64,000 nt of DNA, taken from NCBI GenBank assembly GCA_046566045.1, contig JBKHXL010000039.1:10953-74952 (forward strand), given 5' to 3'. Position numbers and translations under genes: made by a program. Each line of letters opens with the position of its first letter. Within the stretch, counting starts at the first letter, position 1. Origin of the DNA: Candidatus Limnocylindria bacterium. GTDB taxonomy: Bacteria; Chloroflexota; Limnocylindria; Limnocylindrales; CSP1-4. The notes below the pieces were generated by a model, which worked only from the letters and a program-made list of their open reading frames with translations, ran no database searches and had not been told where the DNA came from. This document shows positions 1-6,376 of the stretch, in pieces.

Positions 1-1158
1 TTCGTGATCAATGCCCTGAGCTTCCTCGCGCCGGTCCTCATCCTGTGGACGCTGCCCCCCAACGACCCCCGGAAGGCCGGCGCGGCTGCGACCACGGACG
101 ACCATCCCGGCGCCGACGGCGCGACGGCCACGCCGTCGTCGGCGCCGACGATCACGGCCCGCTCGATCCTGCGACCGTTCGGCGGCCGGGCGGTGCTCGA
201 GGTCGTGAGCGGGTTCCTGTGGGGCGGCCTGAGCGTCGCCCTGGTCATCTTCGCGGTCGATCAGCTCGGCGCCAGCGAGGACGCCACGGGCTACCTCTGG
301 GCGGCGATCGGAGCCGGCGGGGTCCTCGGTGCGGTGGCGTCGAGCTCGATCGTGCTGCGGCCCGACCTCGGGCCCGTGCTGATGCTCGGGACGGTCATCC
401 TCGCGGTCGGGTTCATCGTCCTTGGCGCGGTGGACACGCTCGCCGCGGCGCTGTTCGCGTGCGCGTTCCTGGCCGCCGGCGCGCTGCTCTCGCAGGTCGT
501 CGGCGAAACGGTCCTCCAGCGCGTGGTGCCGGACGCGATCCGCGGTCGCGCCATCGGTACGATGCAGACGCTTGGCACGACGACCTACGCCGCGGGCTCG
601 TTCGCGGTCCCGATCCTGATGACTACCGTCGGCGCCCAGCCGATCCTGACCATCGGCGGAATCGCGATCCTGCTGGCCGGGGTCGTCACGTACGTCCTCG
701 TCGGGTCGCACTTCCAGCGGCCGGAAAGGCTCGAGGCAACGGCCGAGGTCCTCGGGCGCGTGTCGCGCCTGCCGCTGTTCGCCGGCGTCTCGCCGGCCGC
801 CCTCGAGGTGGCGACGAGCCGGCTCGTGCCGGTCGAGGTGTCCGCGGGCACGAGCGTCGTCCGCGAGGGCGACCCGGCCGATCGCTTCTACATCATCGAA
901 TCCGGCGAGTTCGTGGTCGACCAGCGCGACCCGACGACGGGCGAGGATCATCGGCTCCGGACGCTCGGACCGGACGATGTCTTCGGCGAACTCGGGCTGA
1001 TGCACCGGGCACCGCGCAGCGCCACCGTGACCGCCACGTCCGCCGGGCGCCTCCTGGCGCTCGACGGACCGGACTTCCTGCGCCTGCTCGATGCCGAGCC
1101 CGAGGTCTCCGGGCGGATGCTCGATCGCTATCGAGGGGCAGCGGCCCCGCGCGGCTGA
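1..1158 (+). CDS. MFS transporter fused to C-terminal cyclic-nucleotide-binding domain (5' truncated by window edge)
   Basis: Frame open from position 1. Multiple TM segments with MFS motif LQRVVPDAIRGR, then cNMP motifs VVREGDPADRFYIIESG and FGELGLMHRAPRSATV. Confidence 0.85.
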   Translation, partial: FVINALSFLAPVLILWTLPPNDPRKAGAAATTDDHPGADGATATPSSAPTITARSILRPFGGRAVLEVVSGFLWGGLSVALVIFAVDQLGASEDATGYLWAAIGAGGVLGAVASSSIVLRPDLGPVLMLGTVILAVGFIVLGAVDTLAAALFACAFLAAGALLSQVVGETVLQRVVPDAIRGRAIGTMQTLGTTTYAAGSFAVPILMTTVGAQPILTIGGIAILLAGVVTYVLVGSHFQRPERLEATAEVLGRVSRLPLFAGVSPAALEVATSRLVPVEVSAGTSVVREGDPADRFYIIESGEFVVDQRDPTTGEDHRLRTLGPDDVFGELGLMHRAPRSATVTATSAGRLLALDGPDFLRLLDAEPEVSGRMLDRYRGAAAPRG

Positions 1159-1180
1159 GGGCCCACGAGGTCGGGCTGTG

Positions 1181-1376
1181 GCGTGCGTGCCACCCGGGGC
1201 CGGAGGGGCCGGCGGGCGTGCGTGCCACCCGGGGCCGGAGGGGCCGGCGGGCGTGCGGGCCACCCGGGAGACCAGGGGGCGTGCCACCCGGGGAGACCTG
1301 GGGGGCCGGGCGGGCGTGCGTGCCACCCGGGGACCGGAGGGGCCGGTCGTGCCACCCGGGGCCGGAGGAGCCGGTC
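1181..1376. repeat. Degenerate GC-rich tandem repeat, core GTGCCACCCGGGG
   Basis: Core at 1187, 1222, 1257 (variant), 1281, 1320, 1349; spacing 35, 35, 24, 39, 29 bp. Confidence 0.9.
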
Positions 1377-1514
1377 GTGCTTCAGAGACTGCAGGAACGA
1401 GTCGAAGCGGGTCCTGCGCGCTCCTACGACGCCCGCGCGTGCCCAGGATGCACGATGACGCATCGAGGGCCGGATCGCCGGGTCCTGGGCCGATATCTGC
1501 AGCCTCTGAAGCAC
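1377..1514. repeat. 138-bp fold-back element with 18-bp terminal inverted repeats (MITE/REP-like)
   Basis: GTGCTTCAGAGACTGCAG (1377-1394) vs CTGCAGCCTCTGAAGCAC (1497-1514), 17/18 complementary. Inner IR GCCCAGGA (1441-1448)/TCCTGGGC (1483-1490). Confidence 0.75.
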
Positions 1515-1593
1515 AGGTAGCGCCACGCCACGGCGTCCGGGATGATCGGCCCTGGCGTACGGTGCCGACGACGGCCGACGCGCGAGGGACGAG

Positions 1594-2019
1594 ATGCACG
1601 GACAGTCGAACGCTCCCGATCCAGACGCCTACATCGCCGAGCTGGACGACGCGCGGGGTCCCCAGATCGCCGCCATCGACGCGCAGATCCGGAGGGCGGC
1701 GCCGGGCCTCGACCGGCGCATGCAGAGCGGGATGATCGCCTACGGCCACTACTCGTACGGCTACGCGACCGGCCGGACCGGGGAGTGGTTCCTCATCGGG
1801 CTCGCCAGCAACAAGCAGTCCATCTCGCTGTACGTCGGGCCGCTCGCGCTCGAGCCCTACGCCGAGCGCCTGCCGAAGGCGAACCTCGGGCGCGGCTGCA
1901 TCCGGGTCAAGCGCGCCGAGGATCTCGATCCGACCGTCCTCGCGGAGATCGTCACCACCGCGGCCCGCGACGACGGCGCCCACATCGAGACCGATCGGGA
2001 CGGCAACCGCATCGCCTGA
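1594..2019 (+). CDS. DUF1801 (YdhG-like) family protein
   Basis: DPDAYIAEL...MIAYGHYSY...IGLASNKQSISLY...LGRGCIRVK pattern typical of DUF1801; GAGGGA upstream. Confidence 0.75.
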   Translation: MHGQSNAPDPDAYIAELDDARGPQIAAIDAQIRRAAPGLDRRMQSGMIAYGHYSYGYATGRTGEWFLIGLASNKQSISLYVGPLALEPYAERLPKANLGRGCIRVKRAEDLDPTVLAEIVTTAARDDGAHIETDRDGNRIA

Positions 2020-2061
2020 CGTCGGGAGCGCCGGGCCGGGGGTTCCCGTAGGATGCCGGGC

Positions 2062-3030
2062 ATGACCCGCCAGTACATCCCGGACGAGATCCTTGCGGCG
2101 GCCCACGCCCGAGCGGCGGCCCGCGCGGCGCGGGACTGGGTCGAGGCCGACCGCCTGCGCGAGACGATCGAGTCCGCCGGCTGGAAGGTCGTCGACCGGG
2201 GGACGGACTTCGCGCTCAGTCCGGCCGCAGCGCCGGACGTCGCCGACCAGGGGCGCACCCGCCATGGGTCCACGGCCAGCGTCCCGTCCCGTCTCGACGA
2301 GCCGGCGACCGGCCTCGCGACGGTGGTCCTCGTCGCCACCGACTGGCCGGACGACCTGCGCCGAGCCGTGGACGGTCTGCGCCGCCACGCGCCCGCCGGC
2401 ACGAGCATCGCCGTGGTGGCCGACGCGCCGTCCGAGGAGCAGGCACGCGAGCTCGAGGCCCTGGAGGCCGACGCCGCGGACGCCGTTCCCGTCGAGATCA
2501 CCTGGACGAGCGAGCGCCTCGGCCACGCCGCGGCCGTGAACATCGGCATCCGGCGATCGACCGGACCGGTGCTGGTCCTGCTCGACACGAGCCTGGAGCC
2601 GACCGGGGACATCGTCACGCCCCTGGCCCACGCCCTTGACGATCCGACCATCGCCGTGGCCGGCGGGTGGGGCATCACGTCGAGCGACCTGCGCCGGTTC
2701 GAGGACGCCGCCGCGGGCGACGTCGACGCGATCGAGGGGTACTGCCAGGCCTTCCGGCGTGCCGACGCGGTGGCCCGTGGCCCGCTGGACGAGCGCTTCC
2801 GCTTCTACCGCAACCTGGACATCTGGTGGAGCCTGGTCCTGCGCGACGAGGGCGAGGACCAGCCACCGCGCCGGGCCGTCCGACTCGAGGCGCTGCCGAT
2901 CGTCCGCCACGACCACCGTGGCTGGTCGAGCCTCCCGGACGAGGAGCGCGACCGGCAGTCGAAGCGGAACTTCTACCGGATCATCGACCGCTTCGGAACG
3001 CGCCGGGACCTGCTCGTCAGCGCCGGCTGA
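2062..3030 (+). CDS. GT2-type glycosyltransferase with N-terminal CysRS-like anticodon-binding domain
   Basis: GT-A fold motifs ATVVLVA, LGHAAAVNIG, VLVLLDTS, GYCQAFRR, LDERFRFYRNLDIWWS. First ~55 aa align without gaps to the C-terminus of neighbouring CysS. Start placed at ATG 2062 (7 nt after TAGGAT); 2053 is possible. Confidence 0.75.
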   Translation: MTRQYIPDEILAAAHARAAARAARDWVEADRLRETIESAGWKVVDRGTDFALSPAAAPDVADQGRTRHGSTASVPSRLDEPATGLATVVLVATDWPDDLRRAVDGLRRHAPAGTSIAVVADAPSEEQARELEALEADAADAVPVEITWTSERLGHAAAVNIGIRRSTGPVLVLLDTSLEPTGDIVTPLAHALDDPTIAVAGGWGITSSDLRRFEDAAAGDVDAIEGYCQAFRRADAVARGPLDERFRFYRNLDIWWSLVLRDEGEDQPPRRAVRLEALPIVRHDHRGWSSLPDEERDRQSKRNFYRIIDRFGTRRDLLVSAG

Positions 3031-4534
3031 GCCGCTGCCCGTCGGGGCCGTCGATGACGTCCCAGCCCGCAGCGTCCAGGTCGCGGCGCAGCGCGTCGGC
3101 ACGGTCGAAGTCGCGCTGCCCCCGCGCCGCGGCACGCTCGTCGGCCAGGTGCCGGACCTCCTCCGGCAGGGCCTCCTCCGCGTCGGCGGGGCCGGCCCAG
3201 GCGAGATGCAGGTCGAGGCCGAGCACCGCGTCGGCGTCGAGGACCAGCCAGCGGCGCTCGTCGGCGGGGATGTCGGCGCGCAGGATGTCGCGGACCACGG
3301 CGAGGGCGACCGGGGTGTCCAGGTCGTCGTCGAGGGCCGCCGCCACGCGGTCGTGCCACACGCGGCCGGCGGGGGACAGGGGAGCGGCGGGCGCATGGGC
3401 CCGGTCGGGACCGGCCGGGTCGGACGTGCCGATCGCAACCGGACGATCGCCCGCCGCCGGCGCCGCGATCACGCGCGGTCCGGCCCACGGGCCGTCCGTC
3501 GGTGGCGGACCGAGCGCTGCCAGGCGATGTCGCAGCGAGTCGAGGCCCGCCGCGGCGGCCGCCAGTGACGCGTCGGTGTAGTTCAGCTTGCGGCCATAGC
3601 GCGACGTCAGGGCGAGGTAGCGGAAGGCGAGCGGGTCGAGGCCGCGCTCCTCGAGCTCGGTCACGCGCTGGAAGTTGCCGGCCGACTTGGCCATCTTCCG
3701 CCCGCCCATGAGCAGGTGCTCGCCGTGGACCCAGATGCGGGCCGGCGGACCGCCGACGACCGGAGCCGACTGGGCGATCTCATCCTCGTGGTGCGGGAAG
3801 ACGTTGTCGATGCCGCCGGTGTGCAGGTCGAACCGGTCGCCGAGGTAGCGCCGGGCCATCGCCGAGCACTCGAGATGCCAGCCGGGGAAACCCTCCCCCC
3901 AGCGGTCGGTCGGCCACTTGAGCTCGCGGCCGTCGCCCGCTCGCTTCCACAGCGCGAAATCGGCGGGGTCGCGTTTGTCCGGCTCGACCTCGCCCCGATG
4001 GCCGGCCCGCAGGTCGTCCAGGCTGTTGCCGGACAGCGCGCCGTAGCCCTCGAACGCACCGACCGCGTAGTACAGGTTGCCATCGCGCGACTCGTAGGCG
4101 AACCCGGCGTCCTGCAGCTGCTCGGCGAGCCGGACCATGTCGCCGACGTGCTCGGTCGCCCGCGGGAAGACGTGGGCCGGCAGGATGTTGACCGCCGCTT
4201 CGTCCGCGTGGAAGGCCGCCTCGTACGCGTCGGCGATCTCGGCGGTCGTCCGCCCTTCCAGGCCGGCCTGCACCAGCATCCGGTCCTCGCCCCGGTCGAA
4301 CCGCTCGTCGCGCAGGTGTCCGACGTCGGTGATGTTCTTGACGTGCAGGACGGGAAGGCCGTGCCAGACCAGCGTCCGGCGGATGAGGTCGGCCAGGAGG
4401 TACGAGCGCAGGTTGCCGACGTGGGCGTAGCGGTAGACGGTCGGACCGCACGTGTACATCCGGACGGTGGCGCCGTCCATCGGCTCGACCGGTTCGATCG
4501 AGCGGGTCAGGGTGTTGCGCAGGCGGAGGGTCAC
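3017..4534 (-). CDS. cysS: Cysteine--tRNA ligase
   Basis: MYTCGPTVY, HVGN (HIGH), NITDVGH, DFALWK, GFPGWHLECSAM, FPHHEDE, KMAKS. Confidence 0.97.
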   Translation of the reverse strand: MTLRLRNTLTRSIEPVEPMDGATVRMYTCGPTVYRYAHVGNLRSYLLADLIRRTLVWHGLPVLHVKNITDVGHLRDERFDRGEDRMLVQAGLEGRTTAEIADAYEAAFHADEAAVNILPAHVFPRATEHVGDMVRLAEQLQDAGFAYESRDGNLYYAVGAFEGYGALSGNSLDDLRAGHRGEVEPDKRDPADFALWKRAGDGRELKWPTDRWGEGFPGWHLECSAMARRYLGDRFDLHTGGIDNVFPHHEDEIAQSAPVVGGPPARIWVHGEHLLMGGRKMAKSAGNFQRVTELEERGLDPLAFRYLALTSRYGRKLNYTDASLAAAAAGLDSLRHRLAALGPPPTDGPWAGPRVIAAPAAGDRPVAIGTSDPAGPDRAHAPAAPLSPAGRVWHDRVAAALDDDLDTPVALAVVRDILRADIPADERRWLVLDADAVLGLDLHLAWAGPADAEEALPEEVRHLADERAAARGQRDFDRADALRRDLDAAGWDVIDGPDGQRLSRR

Positions 4535-4694
4535 GGTCGAGGCATCCTACCCCCGGTTCGTCCGGCGGCCCGCATCGGATCGGGCGGAGCGAGACGGACG
4601 TCGCTCGCCTGACCGGCCTCGGCACGCCGGGGCCCACCTGGTGCGGCCGCGCACCGGGGCCTAACGTTCGGCGGCGCTGGTCGTTATCGCTACA

Positions 4695-4748
4695 GAGGCC
4701 TCGCGGCACAGACATCGTTCCCCCGGCGGTGTGGTTTCGCGAGGCCTC
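4695..4748. repeat. Perfect 11-bp inverted repeat in the cysS/oppA divergent spacer
   Basis: GAGGCCTCGCG (4695-4705)/CGCGAGGCCTC (4738-4748), 32-nt loop. Confidence 0.6.
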
Positions 4749-4810
4749 ATCACCTGTCCCGCCCGCCCCGTCGGCGAGGTCCACGGCGGGCCGCCCGTAT
4801 ACTCCGCGCG

Positions 4811-6376
4811 ATGCACCGCCGGATGGCCGCGCTCCTGGCCTGTCTCCTCATCGCCGTCGTGGCCGGATGCGGGCAGACTCCGGCCGCCGCCGGCGACGAT
4901 CCCGTCCGGATCCTCCATGGCGAGCCGACGACGCTCGATCCGGCCGCCGCCGGGGACGCCGGCAGCGCGGCGCTCATCGCCCAGCTGTTCGAGACCGTCA
5001 CGACCTTCGACAGCGACCGGGTCCTGCGCCCCGCCATCGCCGAGTCGTGGAGGATCGAGGACGACGGGCGCCGGATCGTCTTTCGCCTGCGCGACGGCCT
5101 GACCTTCTCCGACGGGACACCGCTGGTCGCGGCCGACGTGGTCCGCTCGTGGTTCCGCGTCATCGACCCGGCCCGTCCGTCGCCCCTCGTCTCGCTCATG
5201 AGCGACGTGGCCGGCGCGCTCGCCTATGCACGGGGGCAGGGGAGCGCCGGGGACGTCGGCCTGCGCGCCGACGACGCCGCGAACGAGGTCGTGGTCGAGA
5301 TGGTGCGGCCGAGCGCGGACTTCGTGACCGTCGTCACGAGCCCGACCTTCGCGATCGTCCCGCCGTCGATCGACAGCGACCCGAGCGCGTTCGCACCCGA
5401 CGACGGATTCGTCGCCAGCGGCGGCTACCGGCTGACCGGTTCGACCGCCACGACCCTCGAGCTGTCGGCCAACCCGGCGTACTGGGCCGGCCCGCCGGCT
5501 GTCGCGACGATCACCATCGTCACTGACCTGGGTGGCGCGAGCGCGGTCGAGGCGTTCGAGGACGGCGGCCTCGATTACGCCCCGATCGGGTCGTTCGACG
5601 CGTCCTGGATCGCGTACGACGCCGATCTCGGTCCCGCGCTGCGGAGCGTGCCGTCGCTGTCCACGAACTACTACGGCTTCGACGTCCGCGAGCCCCCGTT
5701 CGACGACGTCCTGGTCCGCCGGGCGTTCGCCTCGGCGGTGGACTGGCGGCGCATCGCCCGCCTGTCCGAGCCCGATCCGGCCGCGGTCGCGACGTCGATG
5801 GTGCCCCCGGGTATCCCGGGGCGGTCGGATGCGGACTTCCTGCCGGCCTACGACCCGGATGCCGCCCGTGCGGCCCTCGCCGACGCCGGCTACCCGGGCG
5901 GCGCGGGCTTCCCGGATGTCGTGCTGCTCACCGGGGGCACGCCGTGGGACGAGGCCATCGTGGTCGAACTGCGACGCGAGCTCGGGATCGACCTGCGCTC
6001 GGAGACGATGGACTTCGGCACGTACTTCGCGCGGCTCGACGACGACCCCCCGGCGATGTGGTCGCTGTCCTGGGTGGCCGACTATCCGGGCCGCAACGAC
6101 TTCCTGGGCGTGCTCCTCGGGACCGGCTCCTCGAACAACTACGGGGGCTGGAGCTCGGCCGAGTTCGACGCCGCGATCGAGGACGCCGCGTCGGCGGCCG
6201 ATCCGGTCACGGCCGCGGCCGCCTACGACCGGGCCGAGGCCATCGTTCGGGACGACGCGCCGGTGATCCCGGTCAGCTACGGCTCCGGCTGGGCGCTGTC
6301 GCGCGAGGGGCTCCTGGGAGCGGGTCAGAACGGCCTGGGCATGCTGCGCATGGCGGGGCTCGCATGGGCGCCCTGA
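4811..6376 (+). CDS. Peptide ABC transporter substrate-binding lipoprotein (family 5, OppA-like)
   Basis: Lipobox VAGC; EPTTLDPA, FRLRDGLTFSDGTPLVAADV, WVADYP. Confidence 0.9.
   Translation: MHRRMAALLACLLIAVVAGCGQTPAAAGDDPVRILHGEPTTLDPAAAGDAGSAALIAQLFETVTTFDSDRVLRPAIAESWRIEDDGRRIVFRLRDGLTFSDGTPLVAADVVRSWFRVIDPARPSPLVSLMSDVAGALAYARGQGSAGDVGLRADDAANEVVVEMVRPSADFVTVVTSPTFAIVPPSIDSDPSAFAPDDGFVASGGYRLTGSTATTLELSANPAYWAGPPAVATITIVTDLGGASAVEAFEDGGLDYAPIGSFDASWIAYDADLGPALRSVPSLSTNYYGFDVREPPFDDVLVRRAFASAVDWRRIARLSEPDPAAVATSMVPPGIPGRSDADFLPAYDPDAARAALADAGYPGGAGFPDVVLLTGGTPWDEAIVVELRRELGIDLRSETMDFGTYFARLDDDPPAMWSLSWVADYPGRNDFLGVLLGTGSSNNYGGWSSAEFDAAIEDAASAADPVTAAAAYDRAEAIVRDDAPVIPVSYGSGWALSREGLLGAGQNGLGMLRMAGLAWAP

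Follow-up and report, generated by a model that had tools for sequence, protein, structure and literature searches.

A glycosyltransferase joined to a cysteinyl-tRNA synthetase anticodon-binding domain in Chloroflexota: a candidate tRNA-Cys-directed enzyme

INTRODUCTION

In a 64,000-nucleotide stretch of a Candidatus Limnocylindria bacterium genome (assembly GCA_046566045.1, contig JBKHXL010000039.1, positions 10,953 to 74,952; the whole stretch is called the window below), a gene for a glycosyltransferase (GT) lies tail to tail with cysS, the gene for cysteinyl-tRNA synthetase (CysRS). The N-terminus of this GT resembles the anticodon-binding domain (ABD) found at the C-terminus of the neighboring synthetase, and we therefore refer to the protein as ABD-GT. 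What would a sugar-transferring enzyme do with a domain that reads the tRNA-Cys anticodon? An initial annotation, made from the sequence, proposed that ABD-GT binds tRNA-Cys and may glycosylate it, act on or use Cys-tRNA, or sense tRNA charging. Here, we describe a computational analysis of the protein, its family, and the alternatives to this proposal.

RESULTS

Relationship of the N-terminal domain to the CysRS anticodon-binding domain

The ABD-GT gene and cysS are convergent and overlap by 14 bp, a layout given in the initial annotation and confirmed from the open reading frames (ORFs) and the sequence (Table 1). ATG 2062 is the start conserved in ABD-GT homologues and in the stored database protein; an upstream in-frame ATG at position 2053 would give an alternative product of 325 amino acids (aa). 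Residue numbers in this work count from ATG 2053.

Table 1. Features of the ABD-GT/cysS gene pair (window coordinates)
Feature	Position	Strand	Description
ABD-GT gene	2062..3030	+	322 aa from ATG 2062; from ORF list and sequence
CysRS-type ABD of GT protein	2077..2220	+	Residues 9-56; two helices and beta hairpin; R20, R24, W29, D33, R36, D48
Conserved linker	2221..2316	+	Residues 57-88; G72...V77-P78-S79; consensus RYGxSxxVPSRLxEP
GT-A (GT2-like) domain	2317..3027	+	Residues 89-325; Pfam PF00535, E 2e-9
D178-T179-S180	2584..2592	+	Putative family counterpart of DxD; in LLDTS
D256	2818..2820	+	In YRNLDIWW; putative catalytic base
H286-D287-H288	2908..2916	+	In VRHDHRGW; candidate metal-binding pair
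Overlap of ABD-GT gene and cysS	3017..3030	.	14 bp, tail to tail, stop codons overlapping
cysS	3017..4534	-	505 aa
CysS own ABD	3026..3169	-	Residues 456-503; paralogue of GT residues 9-56

GT residues 9 to 56 align without gaps to CysS residues 456 to 503 with 21 of 48 positions identical, exactly the count first made by hand. The BLOSUM62 score of this pair is 99. When the GT segment was shuffled 500 times and each shuffle was scanned along the whole of CysS, the best score was 49, and none equaled that of the native segment. BLASTP of the ABD against the neighboring CysS gave 20/47 identities (E 1e-7). The six residues singled out in the initial annotation are present with the expected spacing, R20-x3-R24-x4-W29-x3-D33-x2-R36-x11-D48, and at the position of the GT Trp, the window CysS does indeed have Phe.

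To place these residues on a known structure, we used a profile of 76 representatives of the stand-alone ABD-GT family (alignment A1). This profile matches residues 415 to 456 of Coxiella CysRS (3tqo; E 3.7e-7), and its positions 8 to 48 match residues 414 to 454 of E. coli CysRS (1li5; E 4.9e-4). In the profile register, E. coli numbering equals GT numbering plus 403, so that R20, R24, W29, D33, R36, and D48 fall on E. coli R423, R427, W432, D436, R439, and D451, the residues named in the initial annotation. Significance comes from the family profile alone; a single-sequence PDB search with the first 66 GT residues was weak (3tqo, E 0.83). In the AF2 model, the ABD is folded as two helices (residues 11 to 25 and 29 to 41) and two strands (44 to 49 and 52 to 57), with pLDDT above 95.

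According to two publications, G34 is hydrogen-bonded in E. coli CysRS by R427 and D436, W432 stacks on it, and its water network is held in place by R423 and D436; R427, W432, D436, and R439 are residues mutated to alter anticodon specificity, and R439 lies in the anticodon site (PMC12684709, PMC13449415). The residues that contact G34 are present in the GT protein as R24, D33, W29, and R20. Of the anticodon-reading roles listed in the initial annotation, those of R423, R427, W432, D436, and R439 are found in these publications; D451 presumably reads the anticodon as well. The ABD probably binds tRNA-Cys.

Conservation of the contact residues

We surveyed the six positions in four sets of homologues, a survey that the initial annotation had suggested, and found them invariant or conservatively kept. 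Among the 76 stand-alone representatives, R20, R24, D33, and D48 are each present in 76/76; position 29 is aromatic in all of them (W in 58, F in 14, and Y in 4), and position 36 is R or K in 72. The counts in 27 CysRS::GT2 fusion proteins (described below) are 25 for R20, 27 for R24, 26 for an aromatic residue at position 29, 26 for D33, 27 for position 36, and 27 for D48. All six contact positions are kept in 119 of 119 close relatives. In the 30 Limnocylindria genomes, R20, R24, D33, D48, an aromatic residue at 29, and R or K at 36 are each found 30 times. The orthologues have therefore kept the N-terminal domain, and its loss or degradation, named in the initial annotation as a refuting outcome, is not what they show.

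Across the ABD-GT family, conservation is strongest at the anticodon-contact positions. By segment, the ABD ranks first, with a mean identity to the query in A1 of 0.57, compared with 0.48 for the linker, 0.36 for the N-terminal half of the GT domain, and 0.47 for its C-terminal half. Within the linker, G72 (70/76), V77 (73/76), P78 (71/76), and S79 (70/76) stand out, and a similar SSSxDxPxxLxEP stretch is present in the fusions.

The glycosyltransferase domain

Pfam Glycos_transf_2 matches residues 91 to 215 with 38.1 bits (cut-off, 23.3), and the AF2 model of the whole protein is compact (pLDDT 95.8, pTM 0.92). The best Foldseek matches are ppGalNAc-transferases, SpsA, PcManGT, and the chondroitin polymerase K4CP (probability 1.00, TM ~0.5 to 0.6); among proteins of known structure, PcManGT is nearest in sequence (6yv7; A1 profile E 2.6e-14). 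The GT2-like fold with atypical motifs proposed in the initial annotation is thus borne out: LLDTS appears to take the place of DxD in this family, and YRNLDIWW contains a conserved Asp, the putative base. D178-T179-S180 aligns with D-A-D of PcManGT, with Ser at the second acidic position, and D-T-S is the conserved form of the motif in the fusions (n = 27). D256 presumably occupies the position of the GT2 "ED" motif. An MshA/BshA-type thiol glycosyltransferase was considered and rejected, as the fold is GT-A and not GT-B, and ABD-GT has no NCBIfam MshA or BshA match.

The putative active site is well kept in the fusions and in the close relatives of the window protein. D178 and D256 are each found in 27/27 fusions and 119/119 close relatives, H286 and H288 each in 27/27 and 118/119, and S180 in 23/27 and 116/119. 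Position 291 is W in 27/27 fusions and W (48), Y (65), or F (6) in the 119 close relatives. The whole signature (D-x-S, D256, and H-x-H) is found in 10/10 genomes of the sister family f3. As the window protein retains D178-T-S180, D256, H286-D-H288, and W291, its clade is probably catalytically active, judging from these motifs.

A family of CysRS::GT2 fusions

We searched for the family in clusters at 50% identity and obtained 953 clusters at E <= 1e-3 and 256 at E <= 1e-30, most of which cover the N-terminus. One member, P0229 (736 aa), carries the Pfam CysRS catalytic domain, CysS_C, and GT2, and P0253 and P0243 are N-truncated pieces of the same architecture. A search for longer proteins added at least 10 more fusions of 673 to 810 aa, named "cysteine--tRNA ligase" of Chloroflexota by their sources. 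ABD, linker, and GT are homologous and in the same order in the window protein and the fusions, and Atlas structural rows align ABD-GT residues 4 to 325 to fusions at TM 0.78 to 0.81. The CysRS catalytic body is absent from the window protein, which starts at the ABD, the form of a split derivative.

The 26 fusion sequences compared show no variation in the HIGH-like and KMSKS-like motifs of CysRS or at its Cys/Cys/His/Glu positions; together with the GT motifs, both enzymes of the fusions look intact. The model of a 746-aa fusion (pLDDT 83.7, pTM 0.72) has a low-confidence stretch directly after the ABD (residues 493 to 500), which may leave the GT domain free to swing when fused. The ~800-aa fusions (P0282, P0284-P0290) also have a His-rich tail in their C-terminal ~50 to 60 residues with H-x-H repeats, such as HTHxHxHWPDHxHEHxH, which suggests metal binding.

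At E <= 1e-20, the family is present in 108 of 401 sampled Chloroflexota genomes, a tally that takes in one unpublished genome (G344). Presence differs by taxonomic family, with 22/23 genomes in f1 (the family of the window), 12/16 in f3, and 28/28 in f24; no member was found in several large taxonomic families, e.g., f10 (0/24), f14 (0/25), and f21 (0/25). Of 20 loci fetched, which were picked for family diversity and frame length and are not a random sample, 14 encode true fusions of 720 to 880 aa and 6 encode stand-alone ABD-GT. Two matches occur in 12 of the 28 f24 genomes; the two of these whose loci were fetched, G225 and G289, each pair a fusion with a stand-alone copy. Atlas fusion clusters have 61 to 216 members, mostly Chloroflexota, and in some Atlas stand-alone clusters, the few classified members are Actinomycetota, which is a lead only. 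Four genomes of f23 and f27 (G392, G240, G248, and G264) contain several ABD-GT profile matches with one in-frame TAG, two of which begin only at profile position 75 to 82; these matches may be broken or ABD-less copies.

The domain pairing already exists in databases as uncharacterized proteins, as the initial annotation anticipated, under the generic names "glycosyltransferase," "cysteinyl-tRNA synthetase," and "hypothetical protein." Full-text literature searches turned up no description of a CysRS-glycosyltransferase protein or of a CysS_C domain in other enzymes. The ABD-GT and fusion proteins are a large uncharacterized family with a new architecture.

Origin of the gene pair

The five fusion genomes examined (G287, G027, G225, G289, and G325) each have three CysRS-family genes: the fusion, a free full-length CysRS, and a ~400-aa (390 to 410) paralogue without the ABD. 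The free CysRS is canonical in G287 and G027 (TIGR00435, ~500 bits) and PRK14536-like in G225, G289, and G325. The ABD-less paralogues (loci L135, L137, L138, L140, and L142) score 337 to 397 bits on the MshC model (cut-off, 485) and may be cysteine ligases.

In a tree of 25 sequences, the window CysS lies within the clade formed by the CysRS domains of the fusions (support 100/98). This clade excludes canonical CysRS and the short paralogues, and its internal branching is not resolved. Because only a CysRS can have supplied the ABD and because ABD, linker, and GT follow in the same order in the stand-alone and the fused proteins, the stand-alone ABD-GT must derive from a fusion. The position of the window CysS in the fusion-type clade therefore makes cysS and the ABD-GT gene look like two halves of a split fusion. 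The fused form persists in the same class (G325, family f4), and f1 and f3 have the split form.

Linkage to cysS, which was also part of the suggested survey, is widespread in the class: cysS is downstream and convergent in 74/80 related loci, and 4 of the 6 loci without it have less than 1.2 kb of downstream flank. Gaps to cysS, measurable in 68 loci, are at most 100 bp in 33, 101 to 1,000 bp in 21, and longer in 14. The tail-to-tail layout may have arisen when the ABD-GT segment was inverted once and its ABD-coding piece was copied, an event that would leave exactly such a pair of genes with one ABD each. The inverted repeat between the ABD-coding segments, one 30-nt pair with 70% complementarity (2124-2153/3102-3131) among 61 GC-rich pairs, is not informative. 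From the sequence comparisons above, we consider it very likely that both statements hold jointly, namely that the first ~56 residues of ABD-GT are a true homologue of the CysRS ABD and that full CysRS::GT2 fusions, which occur in many Chloroflexota families, are the source of the ABD-GT architecture.

The window genome and neighboring genes

The window genome (2.89 Mb, 95% complete) has one CysRS-family gene, the cysS of Table 1, and its only two CysS_C matches are CysS and ABD-GT. The window CysS matches Pfam tRNA-synt_1e (E 7.5e-87) and NCBIfam TIGR00435 (358 bits; cut-off, 340), belongs to the "fusion-type" (PRK14536-like) clade, and scores 199 bits on the MshC model (cut-off, 485). Between its catalytic domain and helical bundle is a Pro/Ala/Gly-rich insertion of ~55 residues (~340 to 395), which is common to 20 aligned Limnocylindria CysS orthologues; the aligned fusions have gaps there. 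A complex prediction for CysS and ABD-GT (score 0.00, mark 0.32) is uninformative either way, and a promoter and terminator scan of window positions 1100 to 5000 found none.

The genome has one tRNA-Cys(GCA) and one tRNA-Sec, and no tRNA genes lie beside ABD-GT or fusion genes in the 20 loci. The set of 46 tRNA genes, contig C17:18401-18497 included, has the tRNA-Sec(UCA) and a tRNA-Ile with anticodon UAU. Three other contigs of this genome (C37:12511-13428, C24:2876-4102, and C1:6047-6955) carry Mca/MshB-like, MshA-like GT4, and weak MshD-like (72 bits) genes, all below cut-off.

Upstream in the window, a gene that extends past the left window edge (positions 4 to 1158) joins the C-terminal portion of an MFS transporter to a domain that binds cyclic nucleotides (Pfam MFS_1 and cNMP_binding, E 6e-21). 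A GC-rich tandem repeat array at 1180 to 1380 (periods of ~28 to 35 and 63 nt, 2 to 6 copies, 71 to 94% matches) is intergenic between this gene and a DUF1801 gene (1594..2019).

DISCUSSION

We infer from these data that ABD-GT is a soluble GT-A enzyme with a working copy of the CysRS ABD. That it is a tRNA-Cys-directed glycosyltransferase with the full mechanism outlined here is a serious but tentative proposal, which we place ahead of the alternatives. The ABD would dock on the G34-C35-A36 anticodon of tRNA-Cys through the Arg/Arg/Trp/Asp/Arg/Asp set of CysRS and so position the rigidly attached GT domain on the tRNA. With D178-x-S180, D256, and H286-x-H288 as its donor site, the GT domain would then move a sugar from a nucleotide sugar onto tRNA-Cys or onto the cysteine of Cys-tRNA-Cys. 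Since CysS and ABD-GT carry the same anticodon reader, the two proteins of the split form are not expected to occupy tRNA-Cys simultaneously.

The two candidate acceptors draw on different features of the family. Because ABD-GT is compact (325 aa) and its GT domain is attached directly to the ABD, the anticodon arm would be the nearest part of the tRNA. The existence of extra fusion paralogues with an intact CysRS site favors a reaction that consumes Cys-tRNA-Cys, and in this respect the fusions resemble aminoacyl-tRNA synthetase (aaRS) paralogues whose product feeds the fused enzyme. That ABD-GT is a new class of bacterial enzyme, directed to a single tRNA by a borrowed anticodon reader and placing sugar on an anticodon-arm nucleoside of tRNA-Cys or on the cysteine of Cys-tRNA-Cys, is a more doubtful claim. 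Under it, the synthetase half of the ancestral fusions would aminoacylate tRNA-Cys and pass it to the GT half with the anticodon still bound, and tRNA-specific glycosylation coupled to an aaRS would be a first for bacteria.

Several observations weigh against the proposed reaction, and the main result against a purely enzymatic role is the repeated decay of the GT site in proteins whose ABD is intact. Of the 76 stand-alone representatives, D178 is kept in 31, S180 in 18, D256 in 39, H286 in 14, and H288 in 11, and 25 have no acidic residue at either 178 or 256. The GT signature is whole in only 7/20 genomes of the window's own family, f1, where at least one His of H-x-H is gone in 13/20 and D256 in 4/20, and it varies even inside the window's genus, G124 reading DAG / A / DPT. 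The ORF is intact with a full ABD in 30/30 Limnocylindria genomes, GT-decayed ones included. In some lineages, therefore, catalysis appears to be dispensable and the ABD does not. The window protein itself reads A123-D124 and has lost the first Asp of the nucleotide-sugar motif D-N-G-S-T-D of the fusions; position 123 is D or E in 27/27 fusions and A in 118/119 close relatives and 49/76 stand-alone proteins. D124 may substitute for the lost residue.

Other points against the proposal concern the domain assignment and the genomic context. The profile scan suggested in the initial annotation put Glycos_transf_2 above its cut-off, but CysS_C reached only 17.2 bits on GT residues 18 to 51, and 21.7 bits in the genome scan, under the cut-off of 23. 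As the genuine CysS of the window scores only 18.4 bits (23.6 in the genome scan), the Pfam model is weak on this lineage. The convergent layout means that the ABD-GT gene is not cotranscribed with cysS, and across 20 loci from different families nothing recurs but the gene and shadow ORFs, with no conserved operon partner. BLAST found no second tRNA-Cys in the five fusion genomes, which have one tRNA-Cys(GCA) each, although a divergent copy could escape such a search; the six tRNA-Cys sequences compared have the same anticodon loop. Finally, an anticodon-bound ABD alone cannot distinguish charged from uncharged tRNA.

The decay of the GT site leads directly to the alternative that ABD-GT is a noncatalytic tRNA-Cys-binding protein with the GT-A domain as an (emerging) pseudoenzyme scaffold, in which the ABD would bind, hold, deliver, or buffer tRNA-Cys, for instance as a trans-acting helper of the fusion-type CysRS. 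Invariant ABD contacts beside decaying GT motifs fit this explanation, as do the 20/20 f1 genomes with intact ORF and ABD and a set of invariant or near-invariant arginines in the C-terminal half of the GT domain (R167, R235, R236, R264, R305, R309, and R317), and the decay supports a tRNA-binding, noncatalytic role in the decayed lineages. As an account of the protein as a whole it is distinctly unlikely, since the catalytic site is under purifying selection in the window's own clade: the 119 close relatives retain it almost without exception, as do f3 and, at D178, D256, H286, and H288, all 27 fusions. A GT that acts on a glycan, lipid, small molecule, or protein, with tRNA-Cys as regulator or sensor or with the ABD as an inherited tether that keeps the enzyme near CysRS or the translation machinery, is also unlikely. 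In sequence and fold, ABD-GT is nearest to ordinary GT2/GT27 enzymes, which act on lipids, glycans, or peptides, and GCN2, a kinase with a HisRS-like domain as tRNA sensor, provides a precedent. However, an ABD that reads the anticodon alone cannot sense charging, a remnant would not hold six RNA-contact residues across sets of 76, 27, 119, and 30 sequences, and a Pfam scan matched no membrane or carbohydrate-binding module in the protein.

We consider the two remaining alternatives very unlikely. One is a tRNA-dependent step in a low-molecular-weight thiol pathway, in which the CysRS half would make Cys-tRNA-Cys, the GT-A half would bind the sugar nucleotide or core, and cysteine and sugar would be joined there to give a mycothiol- or bacillithiol-like product, replacing the MshC or BshC ligase. 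The window genome encodes an MshA-like GT4 (221 bits) and an Mca/MshB-like deacetylase (203 and 193 bits), all below cut-off, and neither an MshC-like gene nor BshC was found in this 95% complete assembly; with the ABD-less CysRS paralogues of the fusion genomes, these are leads only. The genome may have a mycothiol-like pathway whose cysteine-adding step was not found among its genes. Mca/MshB-like genes, however, are present in 262/401 Chloroflexota genomes and show no specific co-occurrence with ABD-GT, being found in families without it (f8, 16/17; f10, 22/24; f14, 25/25) and in 0/2 genomes of the fusion-bearing f4. In addition, no thiol genes lie beside the ABD-GT locus, and GT-A is not a known aminoacyl-transfer fold. 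The other alternative, an N-terminal domain that serves as a protein-protein or dimerization module with no RNA binding, would suit a small domain of two helices and a hairpin that is tightly packed on the GT domain in the model; its invariant positions, however, are not confined to the core but are the polar ones whose E. coli CysRS counterparts contact G34.

The tRNA-Cys-directed glycosyltransferase that we propose has partial counterparts among known systems. Its ABD shares the sequence register, the six matched residues, and a predicted helix-helix-hairpin with that of CysRS (E. coli ~403 to 461, PDB 1U0B/1LI5; CysS_C PF23493), which is C-terminal on a synthetase, whereas in the window protein the domain is N-terminal on a glycosyltransferase and scores below the Pfam cut-off. 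The Chloroflexota fusions (e.g., MBI2886497.1 and PKB60553.1) are 31 to 44% identical to window GT region 61 to 325 and share the D-x-S/Asp/H-x-H signature, but they carry the CysRS body, D-N-G-S-T-D, and, in the ~800-aa forms, the His-rich tail, none of which the window protein has. Solved GT-A enzymes, namely, ppGalNAc-transferases (6s24 and 2ffu), SpsA (1qg8), PcManGT (6yv7), and DPMS (5mlz), have the same fold (Foldseek probability 1.00) but only 12 to 18% identity, no ABD, and different motif details.

Other precedents are functional. Mycobacterium tuberculosis LysX, which exists beside the housekeeping synthetase, is a LysRS paralogue fused to an MprF-type lysyl-transferase, and the fusions described here, as extra aaRS paralogues joined to an enzyme, may follow the same logic; the partner in LysX, however, is a membrane aminoacyl-transferase with Lys-tRNA as donor, in contrast to the soluble GT-A fold of ABD-GT. 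SunS and ThuS, GT2-family glycocin S-glycosyltransferases that place sugar on a cysteine thiol, are a precedent by description for one candidate reaction, although they act on peptides and, unlike ABD-GT, have no tRNA-binding domain. The vertebrate queuosine-tRNA glycosyltransferases QTGAL (B3GNTL1) and QTMAN (GTDC1), again alike by description, modify an anticodon-loop nucleoside of tRNA, but they are eukaryotic, have no aaRS-derived domain, and target Q34, which is absent from tRNA-Cys(GCA). Mycothiol synthesis likewise brings a glycosyltransferase (MshA, GT4) and a CysRS relative (MshC, a CysRS paralogue) into one pathway; MshA is GT-B, whereas the window protein is GT-A, and MshC has no ABD.

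The data directly support a strongly selected, portable reader of the tRNA-Cys anticodon and its rigid attachment to a GT-A domain, whose catalytic site is itself under selection in the window's clade and in the fusions. The existence of whole fusions, the fusion-type neighboring cysS, and the repeated loss of the GT signature with the ABD intact are new relative to the initial annotation. With six defined contact residues, the D-x-S/Asp/H-x-H signature, and only one tRNA-Cys gene, the hypothesis is open to direct tests in vitro. The natural series of fused, split-and-active, and split-and-decayed forms would illustrate the reuse of a synthetase domain as a portable tRNA address label and can show the transition from enzyme to binding protein. 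If the proposal is correct, Chloroflexota, and possibly Actinomycetota, would have a sugar-transferring enzyme that acts on tRNA-Cys or Cys-tRNA-Cys. Its reaction could be a new tRNA modification, an extratranslational use of aminoacyl-tRNA, or a new route to cysteine-sugar compounds.

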